From Escherichia coli (GTDB lineage: Bacteria > Pseudomonadota > Gammaproteobacteria > Enterobacterales > Enterobacteriaceae), in the NCBI RefSeq assembly GCF_003334785.1, contig NZ_QOWV01000043.1: a stretch of DNA of 5,588 nucleotides; one strand, given 5' to 3'. Positions within the stretch are counted from its first letter, which is position 1, and the number at the start of each line of letters is the position of its first letter. The notes under the pieces are model-generated. The model had not been told where the DNA came from and searched no databases. It saw only the letters and a program-made list of their open reading frames with translations. The translations under genes and the position numbers were made by a program. Below are positions 1-5,588 of this stretch, piece by piece.

Positions 1-26
1 AGACGGATTCATACATGTATTCCCGG

Positions 27-68
27 TGAAAAAAGACAAAACCCCGCGCACCGGAAAGGTGGCGGGGG
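27..68 (-). terminator. Intrinsic (rho-independent) terminator downstream of the 339-aa gene
   Basis: Plus 42-68 ccccgcgcacc-ggaaa-ggtggcggggg folds into a GC-rich stem of about 10 bp (two single-base bulges) with a 5-nt loop. Read on the minus strand, the hairpin is followed directly by ttttgtctttttt (plus 29-41), about 55 bp past the TAA stop at 122-124. There is no T-run on the plus-strand side, so it is unidirectional. Confidence 0.7.
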
Positions 69-121
69 ATTCACGGAGATAATATCTGTCTGAGATTATT
101 TAGAATGTAACAGGTAATGAA

Positions 122-1141
122 TTACTTCCTTCGCTTGTGTTCAAGATATTTCTCTGTAATCAGCATTTCAAAAAACTCTCCTGTTCTCAGACCGTAAACA
201 GTTCTGAGCTCATCAAGCATTTCTTTCACATTGCTTCTTATATGTATATTAATGGCCTTTTTACCATCACTCCGATATTTTTCCTTTTGTTTTTTCTGAT
301 GCCAGGCATGATTTATTCGTGTTCTGAACAGTTCAATGGTATCAGGCACTTCTTTCCATAAAGCAAAGGCGACAAGAGAGGCAAGATAATATTCTTTCGT
401 TGAAGATGGTATGAACCACCGGGTCACTGGGTTATGTACCGGATGTGTTTCATCCTGTTTTTGTTTCAGTCTTGTCCAGAACCACTGACACATTTCATCA
501 TCGTCAGGAAGGAGCCACTTAAACTTTTGACAAGCGCTTTTCTTTTTAAGCCACGCCTGCCTGAGTTCCTCGAGGTATATGCTTTTTGCATTTTTATTAA
601 TTAAAGAATGGCAGGAGTCAAAATATGAAATGATTACTTTTATTCGTTCGTTATGGGATGATGGATTATCCGGAAGGTTACTTTTTTTGTAAGTGTTTAA
701 CGTTTCATCGGTAACTGTTCGTATTTTTCTGACTTCAATTCCGTTTTTTATTCCTGATGAATTATGGTTTATTTTCGGGAAATTTGTATGATCTTCCTTC
801 GACAGATAAATAGTAGTCCAGGTAAAGAAAGTCGCAAGTTCGTCAGTTTTCAACCAGAGAAAACTCTCTTCAGGCAGTATTGCCTGCCCTGCAATAATTT
901 CAAGTTCATTAATTTCTTTGCTGAGAGTTTCTTCTGCAGTCGAACCAAAAACACCAAAAGAATTGTTTGAAGCTTTATAATACTTTTCTTTTAAAAACGA
1001 ATTAACATTTCTGATACAGTTTTGTGGGTTGTCAGGCGCAAACTGAGGGAATTCATTGGGGTATTTGTGATTCAGATATTCGGCATAAAACCGACATTTA
1101 CGGGGATCTTTGCATTTGATAAGCATCTGTTCGTTATTCAT
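122..1141 (-). CDS. Hypothetical protein, 339 aa; Cys-containing N-terminus and a C-terminal ribbon-helix-helix-like segment (by-eye inference)
   Basis: A 340-codon open frame in AT-rich DNA (about 32% G+C in a hand-counted sample at 601-660), where stop codons are frequent, so it is unlikely to be chance. ATG at 1139-1141 is preceded by GGAG (reverse complement of plus 1149-1152) with a 7-nt spacer. The terminator at 27-68 follows the stop. C-terminal residues KAINIHIRSNVKEMLDELRTVYGLRTGEFFEMLITEKYL show a strand-helix-turn-helix pattern reminiscent of Arc/MetJ/CopG/NikR N-domain. No catalytic motif recognised. Confidence 0.8.
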   Translation of the reverse strand: MNNEQMLIKCKDPRKCRFYAEYLNHKYPNEFPQFAPDNPQNCIRNVNSFLKEKYYKASNNSFGVFGSTAEETLSKEINELEIIAGQAILPEESFLWLKTDELATFFTWTTIYLSKEDHTNFPKINHNSSGIKNGIEVRKIRTVTDETLNTYKKSNLPDNPSSHNERIKVIISYFDSCHSLINKNAKSIYLEELRQAWLKKKSACQKFKWLLPDDDEMCQWFWTRLKQKQDETHPVHNPVTRWFIPSSTKEYYLASLVAFALWKEVPDTIELFRTRINHAWHQKKQKEKYRSDGKKAINIHIRSNVKEMLDELRTVYGLRTGEFFEMLITEKYLEHKRRK

Positions 1142-1470
1142 TATCTCACTCCATGTCGCCTCTCTTATAACAAAATCGTCTCAATTTTATTTTGTCACTA
1201 AGTGATTATCAAATGTTTTTGTTGTGATTTGCTTATGTTGTTAAATGTCTATGTCATGTTATCAGTGTTTTTATATAAAGATATATTGATATTTTTATGA
1301 TGGTGAAAAATCATATTTTCTTTTATATTCATTTGGTTATGCTTGTTTGTTCTGCATTTTGGGGATGACAGAAAAGAATGGGCTGTGTTGATCACATGCG
1401 CCGTATGCGCTCTCCAGGTTACAGCGCACCTCAATATTCAGTGTTTTCCTGTTGACTGGCATTGTTAATC

Positions 1471-1546
1471 TTATGTTTTGGTTTTGTTTTATTGTGTGGT
1501 TGTGAATGTTGTGTTTAGTTTGATGGTTGAGAAAGAAAAAAGAAGA
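1471..1546 (+). repeat. 76-nt cytosine-free GT-rich tract ending in an 18-nt purine run
   Basis: By direct reading there is no C on the plus strand between the c at 1470 and the c at 1547. The tract is rich in tgtt/ttgt/gttt units and ends with gagaaagaaaaaagaaga (1529-1546). The minus strand is correspondingly G-free and CA-rich. Confidence 0.6.
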
Positions 1547-2152
1547 CTATGATGCACTAATCAGGAAATATTTTCGACGCCGGTTGAGTTAAAAGAACAG
1601 ATAGAGTGGACAGGTGTTGTGTTAATAGTTTACGGCTGACAGTATTCTTATTTTAATAACAGGTGTTATTATTTATGGATTTATACAGACGATACTCCCG
1701 ATAAATAGTCAGGTGATGATGGTCGTTGAGTGGTTTTATAAGCTACGTATAGCTCTGTAAGACTTATTAATTCAACGATGACTACCGTTTATTGATATAC
1801 CTGTATTCGGGAAATGTCATAAAAAATGTCACGTTGTTTGCAGAATCTTTTGTTTTTTAGTTTCTGATACGCAATGACTAAGCAGGAGGACTCACTTTGT
1901 TTGTATGCTGAGCGTGATCGCCAGTGGAGATGAACAATTGACTCTTACATTGAAAAATATACTCTTTTGTATTTTATCGTTTATCCGCATGAAGTAAATA
2001 ATCTTCAGCAATGTTATTTATGTAAATATTATCATCTCACCCTGAGTGTTCATTTTATCAGTGTGATATTCCATTGTTTACTGATGAAATTAACCGATAA
2101 GTGATCTTGTTAAGATTGCCAGAACGACAGTTTTTGCTGAGTCCGTGCAATG

Positions 2153-2267
2153 GAAGATGTGTTATATCATCTATTTAAGCAATAAGTTTAATACAGATTT
2201 CAGAAGATGTGTTGGTGAGTTGATGACTGATTTTCAGAGGGGTATGGGAAAGTGTATGGGATCCCAT
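2153..2267. repeat. Short direct repeats plus a 12-bp perfect palindrome
   Basis: gaagatgtgtt occurs at 2153-2163 and again at 2203-2213 (11 bp, 50-bp spacing). gtatggga occurs at 2242-2249 and 2254-2261 (12-bp period), the second copy running into the perfect palindrome atgggatcccat (2256-2267). Confidence 0.5.
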
Positions 2268-2438
2268 AAAGAAAAAATCGTTATTGTTCAGTTGACGTAT
2301 ATTTCCGGGTGATGGCTCCAGTCAGCAGAACATGTGTTTTTCGATGAATGACCCAATAACTTTTTCGTGAATTTCCACGGAGCGTGAAAAGCAAATCGTT
2401 TTTCGGTCCAGTCGTTTGATGCGGGAACGGAGTGTCAG

Positions 2439-2723
2439 ATGGTGGTGCTCAATACGCCGGGTAAATATCAATACGATTTGAGGAACCATTTGCTGGTTAA
2501 TCTCTTTCCGATAGCATTGGATGCAGAAATAACTACATCCAATGTAAATAAGCATCAATTGCACAGAAGCAATATACCTGCGGCCCTCTCCGGAAATTCC
2601 GGTATCACTGACTACGTACCGTTTTCAGCAGAACGAAATGCGGCGATGGTCATTTGGCGGACAGCCATAGATAGCCGTCCGGCTGTGTGTAACGATGAGG
2701 AAGGAACCCCGGGAACGTTATGA
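2439..2723 (+). CDS. Hypothetical 94-aa ORF, convergent with the 190-aa gene (uncertain)
   Basis: ATG at 2439 preceded by GGAG (2429-2432) with a 6-nt spacer. It lies in a G+C-normal segment, and its translation looks more protein-like than the overlapping minus-strand ORF 2322..2564, which is Cys/His/Arg/Ile-heavy. Its stop at 2721-2723 is 1 nt from the stop of the 190-aa gene (2725-2727). No recognisable family. Confidence 0.3.
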   Translation: MVVLNTPGKYQYDLRNHLLVNLFPIALDAEITTSNVNKHQLHRSNIPAALSGNSGITDYVPFSAERNAAMVIWRTAIDSRPAVCNDEEGTPGTL

Positions 2724-2724
2724 A

Positions 2725-3297
2725 TCAACAGGCGTATAACAGGTACTCGTCAATCATCAGTTCCAGCTCGCGCTTTTCCCGTTTGCGCGCCACAGCCCAG
2801 TTTTCAAGCTCTGCATGTGATTTATGCTTTAACTCTTCAGTCCAGGGCTGCATGGAGTGGGCACACATCAGATCATACCAGCACAGCCATATTAGCGTGT
2901 GGTAGAGATCACGATCGTCGAAACGCCGGAGCAGGCTGTTCAGCCTGTTTGCCAGCCGGCTTTCGCCCAGACGATGTAGCTCACTGAGTAAAACGCCGCC
3001 CAGATTAAAATGCGTAAGCAGCATGATTTCATGGGTCTGAATGCTGGTCATTAACCCTTCCTGAATGGCAGGAATGAACGGTGGCGTTCCCGGGTTGACG
3101 ACCTGATAGAGTCCCTGTGGTGCCACTGAGATGATGGTGCCTTTTTCCGGTAGAAAAAAGTGGGCCAGGGTCAGGCGGTGATAACCATGAAGATGCGGAG
3201 AGCCCATTCCATGAGCGACAATAAACCGGGTTACACTTGCCATCCATTTCTGATGCTGAATTAGCAGCAGATCACACCGGTTTTCAAGTTTTTGCAT
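2725..3297 (-). CDS. Hypothetical protein, 190 aa, likely co-transcribed downstream of alpA
   Basis: ATG at 3295-3297 preceded by AGGAG (reverse complement of plus 3306-3310) with an 8-nt spacer. It starts 85 bp after the alpA stop on the same strand, with no terminator visible between them. G+C resembles alpA. In enterobacterial islands the gene after alpA is often annotated as an inovirus Gp2 / YfjJ-YagK-type protein, but I cannot confirm that from sequence memory. Confidence 0.75.
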   Translation of the reverse strand: MQKLENRCDLLLIQHQKWMASVTRFIVAHGMGSPHLHGYHRLTLAHFFLPEKGTIISVAPQGLYQVVNPGTPPFIPAIQEGLMTSIQTHEIMLLTHFNLGGVLLSELHRLGESRLANRLNSLLRRFDDRDLYHTLIWLCWYDLMCAHSMQPWTEELKHKSHAELENWAVARKREKRELELMIDEYLLYAC

Positions 3298-3382
3298 AAT
3301 ATTCTCTCCTTTAGCACGCAGCAGAATGCCTCCGGAGGCCGGATAGTGTATTCGCTGCGGTTGAACGGATAACGGTCAGGAA

Positions 3383-3589
3383 TTACGGACGGGATTGTGC
3401 AATACGCGCCTGCAACCAGGCTTCCACTTCACTTTTCAGCCATCGGGAGCTGCGGCCGAGTTTGATGGGGGCCGGAAAGGCACCATCTTTGATGAGCTTA
3501 TAAAACCACTTATCGGTTAAGCCGGTCAGTTGAGTGATAAACGCCATGTCGACCATCTGGTCATCCATCAGCGAAACTGGGGTCTTCAT
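3383..3589 (-). CDS. alpA: AlpA-family phage/island transcriptional regulator (excision activator-like), 68 aa
   Basis: Translation MKTPVSLMDDQMVDMAFITQLTGLTDKWFYKLIKDGAFPAPIKLGRSSRWLKSEVEAWLQARIAQSRP carries the characteristic AlpA/Vis-type helix-turn-helix signature (LTGL...Y.LIK.G.FP.PIKLG..S.RW...EVEAWL). ATG at 3587-3589 is preceded by GGAGG (reverse complement of plus 3599-3603) with a 9-nt spacer. Size is typical of the family. Confidence 0.88.
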   Translation of the reverse strand: MKTPVSLMDDQMVDMAFITQLTGLTDKWFYKLIKDGAFPAPIKLGRSSRWLKSEVEAWLQARIAQSRP

Positions 3590-3971
3590 GAAAATGTTCC
3601 TCCGGATGTTGTTAATCTCAACCGGCGTTGGTGATGAAAACGACGCACCACCTTCACCGGCATAACAACCGGGGAGAAACGTAAAAAAGTTGAGGAATAT
3701 TCCTGCCAGGAGAGAAACTGTTGTGTACAGGCAATACAGGTTGTCTGTTTTGTCAGTGAAGCCGGTATAAACGGAAGATGATTTTGTGTTGCCGGAATAT
3801 GGGATGGCGTTTTGCCGTGACGGAATCAGTATTTTCAGTGATGATTATTACTGCGCAGGGGAGTATCGGAGATAAACCACGCCCTGTACCTGCCAGAGCT
3901 GTGGTTTGTATTTACTGAAAGGAAGATAAAGCAGAGGTAAACACTGTTGCGGTGAACGGAGAAGACTGAAA

Positions 3972-4763
3972 TTATTCTCTGTAATTACAAACAACAGTGA
4001 TCTGATCCGGTTTTTTTACCGTTACGGGTTTCCGGGGATCAATTTTATAGACCGGGGTAATGACCACGCCGGAATTTATGGAGAAAAGCGGGATCCAGCA
4101 ATAAACGTCCGGATATTTCTGTGTCTCCGGAATACCTTTTGCGCCAGAGGCCATCAGATCTTTAACGCTCACGAAAAATGACTGCCGCAGATCAAAAAAG
4201 TACTCGTCATATATCACGTCTTTTGCCAGCAGGATGACTGCATTACCAACAGCCACTTTTACAGGTGTTTCGCCCGATGGATTATCGTGATTGTATATTG
4301 TTCTTTCGATATAAATAAAACAGGCATATTTCGTCTTCTCCCCGGATAGCTGCATCTGGTATTCGCAAATGTCTTTGATATACCGACTTTCAACCCTTCC
4401 AATCATCTTATCCCGGCGATAGTGTCTTTTATGTTTCAGCGCGTACAGAACACCATTTGAACTGTCAAACTCCAGGACTCTTCTGGTGAAAAGTTTGTTT
4501 TCCCAGATTTCCAGACAATACTTCTCTGCACTGACGACATTGCGTTTGCGAGGAAGATCCCGTTGATACACTCCATTTAATAAGCGTGACTGCAGTTCGC
4601 CTGCAAGTTGATAATAACAGTTAATATCGTTAAGGACAGGTGCTGTGGCGCTGAGTAATGCGTCGATTACCTTAGAGCGCGAAAGTTTGTGGGTATGACA
4701 GTACTCATCCACAATTCGCAGCGTCTCATCACTAGTCATATTGAAAGTTATACGTGTTGTCAT
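3972..4763 (-). CDS. Hypothetical protein, 263 aa; N-terminal ribbon-helix-helix DNA-binding domain fused to a C-terminal domain of about 220 aa with unknown function
   Basis: A 264-codon open frame (about 43% G+C in a hand-counted sample at 4201-4260). ATG at 4761-4763 is the first possible in-frame start, since an in-frame stop lies 6 codons upstream. N-terminal residues TRITFNMTSDETLRIVDEYCHTHKLSRSKVIDALLSAT match a strand-helix-turn-helix RHH pattern (compare the NikR N-domain RVTITLDDDLLETLD...). No obvious Shine-Dalgarno: the upstream sequence is aacagaaaacttcatcATG. Confidence 0.75.
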   Translation of the reverse strand: MTTRITFNMTSDETLRIVDEYCHTHKLSRSKVIDALLSATAPVLNDINCYYQLAGELQSRLLNGVYQRDLPRKRNVVSAEKYCLEIWENKLFTRRVLEFDSSNGVLYALKHKRHYRRDKMIGRVESRYIKDICEYQMQLSGEKTKYACFIYIERTIYNHDNPSGETPVKVAVGNAVILLAKDVIYDEYFFDLRQSFFVSVKDLMASGAKGIPETQKYPDVYCWIPLFSINSGVVITPVYKIDPRKPVTVKKPDQITVVCNYRE

Positions 4764-5086
4764 GATGAAGTTTTCTGTTAATCATATTGGTTGATATGCA
4801 TAACATTCCATAAAAAACACTGTTAATTCATATAATTAATTTTTTTGTGTGTTTTTTCCTTGAGTGGTAGAAAGCAGGGTTACTGCCACTGTACTCAGCA
4901 TAACTCTATCACATAGAACCACAGAAAATGAAGCATTGCTCAGGGGGGAGGTACTTATACGAGTTCTCTGAACCGTGATAACCAGTATTTTTCATGTTGG
5001 GTGATTTGTCGTTACAGCTACAGGCAGTTCATGTACTATTAAAAAATAATTAAGGTTAATTAGTATTATTTATAGAAGTATGGTTA

Positions 5087-5286
5087 TGTAAATGAACCCT
5101 GTAATTCCACCTTGTAACCCAATCCTGTAGACGGATCTCTCATAAAGATATGCTCATAGAAGTATCTGTACAGAGATATTCTCTGTAGTAGTACTTGTAA
5201 CTCTGTCCTTAACTCTCTCTGCTGTAATGTAATCTCGTAACACCTGAATATAAATCTGTCATGTACACACACTGACTGTAATGTAC
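5087..5286. repeat. Cluster of TGTA-core short repeats (candidate operator or iteron array)
   Basis: About eleven TGTA/CGTA-core motifs in roughly 200 bp: ctgtaat at 5099, 5222 and 5276; ttgtaac at 5112 and 5195; ctgtag at 5125 and 5183; ctgtaca at 5166; tgtaca at 5262. The 10-mer ctgtaatgta recurs at 5222-5231 and 5276-5285. The cluster lies 320-520 bp upstream of the 263-aa gene start. Confidence 0.45.
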
Positions 5287-5428
5287 TTTGTTAAGTAATG
5301 CCTGTTGTGTGGAGGCTATTCTGGCTAAATAAGAGTATGAATCGTCAGTGTCAATAGTGTGGATAACGGTGGTTGAGGGAGAACTGTTAATGTTTTGCTT
5401 TTGCAGTTCACCTGATGAATTTTGGTAG

Positions 5429-5437
5429 TGATATAAT
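5429..5437 (+). promoter_or_regulatory. Candidate extended -10 promoter element (TGnTATAAT) facing the right edge of the window
   Basis: tgaTATAAT at 5429-5437 is a perfect extended -10 consensus. No good -35 is present (cacctg at a 17-bp spacing). The context is AT-rich, so a chance match is plausible. No ORF start with an SD was found downstream within the window. Confidence 0.25.
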
Positions 5438-5588
5438 ATTGTGATCGTAAAAAGTATACCTTATGCCATTAAACAGTCTTCTGGAGTGTTGTTTACTAGT
5501 AAGCGACTCGTCAGAACCGTATTGATATTTACTGAGAGCTCAGATCAACTTTCCAGGGCAACAGATCGCGTACCCGGTTTGCCGGCCA

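Follow-up and report, generated by a model that had tools for sequence, protein, structure and literature searches.

Sigma-70 promoters of the TGnTATAAT class can work without a −35 element, galP1 being one example. In AT-rich DNA silenced by H-NS, spurious promoters are well documented (PMC3923964, PMC7229825), and bidirectional promoters with overlapping symmetric −10 elements and starts about 18 bp apart have been described, a layout reported to be enriched in horizontally acquired DNA (bioRxiv 10.1101/2020.01.31.928960). Two studies, by Prieto et al. (PMC4864382) and by Bernabeu et al. (PMC6480617), deal with the island-borne hha2/hha3 group of hha paralogues in pathogenic E. coli, whose two members in EAEC 042 are EC042_4516 (hha2) and EC042_4796 (hha3). 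In that strain hha2 is expressed slightly below core hha, as judged by qRT-PCR (PMC4864382), and genes of a duplicated island region, one copy of which carries hha2, are more than 2-fold up in hns and hha-null mutants (PMC6480617). Both papers are silent on a promoter for the hha2/hha3 paralogues.

Here we analyse a 5,588-nucleotide stretch of Escherichia coli DNA (contig NZ_QOWV01000043.1; hereafter the window), near the right edge of which an extended −10 motif is followed by the end of an insertion sequence. We propose, with a probability of roughly 45%, that this motif is an active, lineage-specific distal promoter of an island-borne hha paralogue, orphaned here by the insertion of ISCro1. 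The features on which the argument turns are as follows.

3972–4763, minus strand: divergent 263-aa gene, ATG at 4763
4764–5498, no strand: AT-rich intergenic region (35% GC, 735 nt) between the divergent 263-aa gene and, in relatives, hha
5407–5412, plus strand: weak −35-like hexamer TTCACC (4/6 match; 19-bp spacer, suboptimal)
5429–5437, plus strand: extended −10 motif TGATATAAT, TG at 5429–5430 and hexamer at 5432–5437, by direct reading
5433–5438, minus strand: −10-like TATTAT, overlapping the top-strand hexamer symmetrically, with its predicted start opposite T5426
5438–5498, plus strand: 61 nt of island DNA between motif and insertion sequence, identical to L001 6679–6739
5444, plus strand: predicted transcription start, an A 7 nt past the hexamer, placed by sequence geometry
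5491–5498, no strand: GTTTACTA, presumed 8-bp target site of the insertion sequence, one end of which lies in the window and the other beyond its edge
5499–5588, minus strand: end of an IS66-family, ISCro1-like element, terminus GTAAGCGACTCG from 5499 and 3′ end of tnpC at 5529–5588

On direct reading, the plus strand from 5401 to 5450 is TTGCAGTTCACCTGATGAATTTTGGTAGTGATATAATATTGTGATCGTAA, and the bases T5429, G5430, A5431, T5432, A5433, T5434, A5435, A5436 and T5437 spell TGnTATAAT. The initial annotation had claimed an exact extended −10 consensus, tgaTATAAT at 5429–5437 on the plus strand, and this is confirmed: a sigma-70 extended −10 element has TG at −15/−14, one base 5′ of a near-TATAAT hexamer, and TGATATAAT matches that description exactly, as the single occurrence of TGNTATAAT on both strands of the whole window. 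The lack of −35 support is likewise borne out, there being no −35 hexamer at 16–18 bp from TATAAT (a consensus scan requiring that spacer does not list the site); the best available hexamer is TTCACC, 19 bp away. Position −18 is a T (5426), and positions −23 to −17 read TTTGGTA, which is partly A/T. The site thus resembles galP1-type extended −10 promoters in its exact TGnTATAAT, its want of a usable −35, the T at −18 and the A 7 nt further on, but it differs from them in that the window motif has no gene ahead of it and faces only the end of an insertion sequence.

The top-strand TATAAT (5432–5437) and the bottom-strand TATTAT (5438 to 5433) are paired through their positions 2 and 6, which puts the predicted starts at 5444 on the plus strand and 5426 on the minus strand, 18 bp apart; as far as sequence geometry alone goes, this is the bidirectional symmetric −10 layout. 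The GC fraction over 4700–5499 is 0.33–0.39, an AT content well above that of the host genome, and the context is that of a horizontally acquired island, with alpA, insertion sequence remnants and, in relatives, an Ag43 island.

Across the window 0.30 motifs of the TGNTATAAT type are expected, and at least one occurs in 54 of 200 dinucleotide shuffles (27%), so that the motif is not unusual at the level of the whole window and the earlier remark that chance occurrence in AT-rich DNA is plausible holds good. Within the 735-nt intergenic region, first-order Markov simulation gives a probability of 0.064 on the plus strand and 0.090 on either strand, while a plain TATAAT turns up in 53% of the simulated plus strands of this region; the real strand has a second one at 4831. 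A sigma-70 position-weight scan of the plus strand from 4764 to 5498 ranks the motif first, at 11.4 against 7.5 for the next site, and at the intact locus L001 it is again top on the plus strand, at 11.4 against at most 7.6; the scan is rough, and these scores serve for ranking only. RNA polymerase can probably bind the motif.

The same intergenic region contains other sequence features upstream of the motif. Four TGTAA/TGTAG units recur at 13-bp spacing (TGTAAATGAACCC, TGTAATTCCACCT, TGTAACCCAATCC and TGTAGACGGATCT), together with further CTGTAATGTA units, the repeats lying at 5086–5138, 5222–5241 and 5276–5294 of the window; their copy number varies among island lineages, one of which adds a CTCTAC microsatellite. 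The 263-aa protein has a weak N-terminal match to a ribbon-helix-helix-like domain, and the repeats might be operator sites for it. About 70 bp upstream of the motif, at 5358–5366 on the minus strand, there is a perfect DnaA box, TTATCCACA; most island lineages retain TGTGGATAA here, and one has CCTGGATAA. The box, the repeats and the AT-rich DNA loosely resemble an origin-like or regulatory hub. P4-type iterons (TGTTCACC) were also considered around AGTTCACC at 5405 and were rejected, with 8 matches (at most one mismatch) against 5.2 expected.

Immediately downstream of the motif the picture changes. The motif had been said to point out of the window, which is correct geometrically, but the DNA flanking it stops at 5498 and insertion sequence begins at 5499. 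GTAAGCG is typical of the ends of IS66 elements, and the sequence from 5499 has both a terminal repeat of this type and the 3′ end of a tnpC gene. Matches to IS66/ISCro1 in thousands of E. coli records start at window positions 5497–5501, and translation of the minus strand from 5529 to 5588 gives ...WPANRVRDLLPWKVDLSSQ*, identical to the C-terminus of the annotated ISCro1 transposase in L104. In its GTAAGCG terminus and its tnpC C-terminus the element agrees with ISCro1, although the window holds just 90 bp of it, as compared with the full 2,699-bp copy in L104, where the 8-bp flanks TTTTGTTA and TCTTGTTA are alike at 7 of 8 positions. The uninterrupted sequence at the insertion point is ...GTTGTTTACTA|TCTGATTG. 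ISCro1 starts 61 bp downstream of the motif, at +56 of the predicted transcript, and its genes run toward the motif; instead of a plus-strand transcription unit, what follows the motif in the window is an ISCro1 end with genes on the opposite strand, and the motif is therefore cut off from any hha gene. The insertion would separate motif and gene by 2.7 kb, and in the source genome hha would still lie about 2.9 kb beyond the motif.

None of 5,426 complete E. coli genomes contains the junction between insertion sequence and flank, nor do the metagenome contigs, which were probed with a 32-mer and a 19-mer spanning it; the insertion looks strain-specific and recent. A conserved 21-mer from upstream is absent from viral contigs. 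The segment from alpA to hha is a recurrent target of insertion sequences across E. coli loci: besides ISCro1 in the window, there are two independent IS2 insertions in the hha leader, in opposite orientations and 7–8 bp apart, and IS3-family elements in three places, namely in the repeat region, inside hha and inside the 263-aa gene. The coordinates of these insertions are window 5499, L006 ~4654, L106 1413, L005 3025–4253, L107 1616 onward and L001 4694–5922.

What the insertion interrupted can be read in its uninterrupted relatives (L001, which is strain 300709; L003, which is AMSCJX03; and the lineage-A loci among L094–L101), which are identical to the window up to 5498 and then continue with TCTGATTG... 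The next plus-strand gene in these intact loci encodes a 70-aa Hha protein (PF05321), with its ATG 277 bp from TATAAT and zero annotated genes in between; a transcript starting at the equivalent of 5444 would have a leader of 265 nt to hha, and window positions 5438–5498 correspond to the beginning of this 265-nt region, where they hold a small, non-conserved ORF (ATG at 5463). The suggestion in the initial annotation of a gene beyond the right edge therefore stands in part: an hha paralogue does face the motif in relatives, but in the window ISCro1 intervenes. Gene order in the relatives runs alpA, the divergent 263-aa UCP007319 gene, about 950 bp of AT-rich intergenic DNA, hha, a yfjJ/inovirus-Gp2-like gene and zinc-ribbon genes, in an island of the Ag43/CP4-44 type.

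Positions 1–3718 of the window, comprising a 339-aa gene, an IS1 remnant region, a 190-aa gene and alpA, share 95–97% identity with the island of EAEC 042 in which hha2 (EC042_4516), Ag43 and irmA lie (L102 44307–47936), and because of this identity we place the downstream gene of the relatives in the hha2/hha3 group. Like hha2 and hha3, it encodes a 70-aa PF05321 protein, lies by alpA and is found upstream of a yfjJ/inovirus-Gp2-like gene. The EAEC 042 loci differ, however, in having no 263-aa gene and in an upstream region that is different, GC-richer and devoid of the motif, hha3 being similar to hha2 in this regard. Since the EAEC 042 island has neither the 263-aa gene nor the AT-rich intergenic region, the island here is a mosaic, and because neither EAEC 042 copy has an upstream region of the motif-bearing type, the published qRT-PCR of hha2/hha3 is uninformative on the motif. 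A scan of genome contigs across species with the Hha paralogue as query returned only relatives of at most 71% identity, whose upstream ORFs went into the TomB search that follows. Core hha has tomB upstream, whereas the island hha of the relatives has no tomB-like gene or remnant; a tomB remnant between motif and hha was rejected after a tblastn search whose queries were a TomB sequence and 54 ORFs that precede hha homologues and at some loci are TomB-like, the best match in the upstream regions having E = 0.09.

Comparison across island lineages shows how narrowly the motif is distributed. The 60-mer bearing it occurs in 58 of 5,426 genomes, and all ten lineage-A loci that were read (L001, L003, L006, L094, L095, L097, L098, L100, L101 and the TG-less variant L002) have an intact hha, with an IS2 between motif and gene in L006. 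The close variant L002 reads TAATATAAT, with TG changed to TA, and the L105 lineage, also with an intact hha, reads ATACATAAT, in which CATAAT is displaced by 2 nt from the same spot. A 12-bp deletion (GGTAGTAATACGTAAAAG) that removes the hexamer is present in 615 genomes, most of which have a truncated hha (ATG GAA TTT TAA); at four loci (L092, L093, L096 and L099) the deletion is combined with an intact Hha that is 100% identical. These four look like mosaics, with sister-lineage sequence distally and lineage-A-like sequence proximally, so that the intact hha there may be recent. Variation peaks in the patch of about 20 nt that includes the motif, between flanks that are otherwise well conserved.

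The motif is therefore not retained upstream of intact hha across island lineages, given substitution, displacement, deletion and the unrelated upstream region of EAEC 042. Non-conservation in related sequences had been named at the outset as grounds for giving the element up, and this is largely what is seen: TG is lost in one variant, the hexamer is shifted and altered in another lineage, and it is deleted in 615 genomes. Among the loci compared, the motif reads as lineage-specific and not as a conserved element; since it is not conserved in sister lineages and is cut off by the insertion sequence, it may be regarded as an ordinary promoter candidate. A second such candidate for hha, and a competing one, is a proximal TATTAT some 42 nt ahead of the start codon of hha; every lineage in which hha is intact retains it, and the decayed lineages have lost it by deletion. 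In the commonest sister lineage (L007, L088 and L005; ~519 genomes) hha has decayed to ATG GAA TTT TAA and is annotated as just a 49-aa fragment from a downstream start codon, and deletions of 12, 5 and 6 bp remove the distal motif, part of a hairpin and the proximal TATTAT.

The reading that we consider best, that of a distal hha promoter orphaned by an insertion sequence, would run as follows. The motif would be a sigma-70 extended −10 element in the AT-rich DNA preceding an island-borne hha paralogue. Polymerase bound to it in intact relatives would initiate close to the position matching window 5444, transcribe the 265-nt leader and run on into hha, which would make the motif a distal promoter of hha, in the motif-bearing lineage only. 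In the window, ISCro1 at 5499 (+56) has severed the motif from hha, leaving at most a read-in transcript antisense to the 3′ end of tnpC. Any activity of the motif is inferred, and for its contribution to hha expression in intact relatives we would offer odds just short of even. Counting in favour are the exact motif, accompanied by a T at −18 and an A at the predicted start, its top sigma-70 score and the chance level of ~0.064 for this strand and region, as well as hha being the next gene in intact loci, the intact hha at 10 of 10 lineage-A loci, the CATAAT of L105 and a predicted leader helix, described below, that is better kept where hha is intact. Counting against are the lost TG of L002, the variability of the patch around the motif, the deletion found with an identical, intact Hha, the rarity of the motif (58 of 5,426), the proximal TATTAT, the weak fold of the leader and the expression of hha2 in EAEC 042 from an unrelated upstream region that has no such motif. 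Nothing in this result departs from known biology.

The alternative that survives best is that the motif arose by chance in AT-rich, acquired and probably H-NS/Hha-silenced DNA and serves no dedicated purpose, whatever transcription starts there being spurious noise and possibly bidirectional, an account that we find credible at somewhat less than an even chance. It draws on the 35% GC of the intergenic region, where a plain TATAAT is expected about half the time, and on the 27% of window shuffles that carry at least one extended motif, as well as on the restriction of the motif to one lineage, its place in the least conserved patch, the missing −35 and the symmetric pairing of its hexamer with the bottom-strand TATTAT, the predicted starts being 18 bp apart. 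Spurious promoters of H-NS-silenced AT-rich DNA (PMC3923964, PMC7229825) offer a precedent, as does the de-repression of the related duplicated island region of EAEC 042 in hns and hha-null mutants (PMC6480617). In common with the sites of three studies (PMC3923964; PMC7229825; bioRxiv 10.1101/2020.01.31.928960) the window has an island intergenic region of 35% GC, a −23 to −17 tract that is partly A/T and a lineage-specific symmetric −10, but those sites are mostly intragenic, whereas the motif is intergenic and, in intact relatives, oriented toward a gene. It is, moreover, the best sigma-70 match on the hha-facing strand, expected by chance in only ~6% of cases for that strand and region, and hha is intact at every lineage-A locus examined; a spurious origin would in any case be compatible with a contribution to hha expression.

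A more elaborate account builds on predicted RNA structure. RNAalifold proposes a long-range helix of 22 pairs in the leader, joining L001 6717–6741 with 6857–6883; its 5′ arm corresponds to window 5476–5498, just downstream of the motif, with ISCro1 sitting at the 3′ edge of the arm. Between 21 and 22 of the 22 pairs are kept in lineages with an intact hha, as against 15–19 of 22 in decayed ones, a pattern that would fit transcripts starting upstream of the 5′ arm. A hairpin of 9–10 bp is also predicted just before the hha ribosome-binding site (L001 6883–6905) and is better kept in lineages with an intact hha. Fold stability is not significant for the leader (z = −1.56), nor is it for the window's own 5444–5588 (z = +0.37), and neither helix nor hairpin is callable as structure, because variation is too low and a z of −1.56 too weak. 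On these models the motif might start a structured leader of ~265 nt (the 22-bp helix plus the hairpin before the ribosome-binding site) controlling the island hha, and the insertions and deletions that recur in precisely this leader across E. coli might be the mark of selection for uncoupling, or retuning, a cofactor of xenogeneic silencing; we consider this unlikely. The events that such selection would conceivably have favoured, and we are just as doubtful of their being its product, are the ISCro1 insertion of the window, the two IS2 insertions and the 12-, 5- and 6-bp deletions.

We think it improbable that the motif is instead the promoter of an unannotated RNA of ~230 nt ending at the hairpin before hha, or of a Cys-rich ORF of 31 codons (ATG at 5463). 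Intact loci do have a terminator-like hairpin, CGTCAGAATACGTTATTCTGACG, with a weak T run, ~45 nt before hha, the long-range helix is predicted in the same leader stretch, and lineages A, A2, D and B′ all retain an open frame of 28–31 codons. Yet the hairpin is followed by a poor T run, the fold z-scores are those given above for the leader and for 5444–5588, and neither the window nor L001 6000–7400 matches any Rfam family at E ≤ 1. Nor is there a terminator-like site in 4700–5588, and with the Rfam result this leaves the possible small RNA raised by the initial annotation without backing. The ORF from 5463, open though it is in several lineages, has no Shine-Dalgarno sequence and shows substitutions that are not coding-like, with changes at codon positions 1 and 2 (P to S, L to P, N to K), and we reject it as a gene; in the window both candidates, RNA and ORF, are truncated by the insertion sequence.

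On the minus strand, TATTAT (5438 to 5433) is very unlikely to serve as a far-upstream promoter of the divergent 263-aa gene, for although the bidirectional geometry is exact and that gene is the divergent neighbour, the start would lie ~660 nt from the ATG at 4763, the bottom hexamer has neither TG nor −35, better minus-strand candidates lie nearer the gene (for example TTTACA-16-AATAAT at 5092–5065) and lineages with the 12-bp deletion retain an intact 263-aa gene.

The locus carries a general caution, in that an extended −10 lying in AT-rich island DNA, even a textbook-perfect one, is no evidence of a conserved transcription unit. Should the motif fire, one lineage of hha2/hha3-type paralogues would have its first candidate promoter, and the window would provide a tidy example of an insertion sequence uncoupling a nucleoid-associated regulator from its promoter. 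The hha2/hha3-type paralogues have been proposed as virulence indicators and, together with H-NS, modulate the expression of Ag43 and IrmA.
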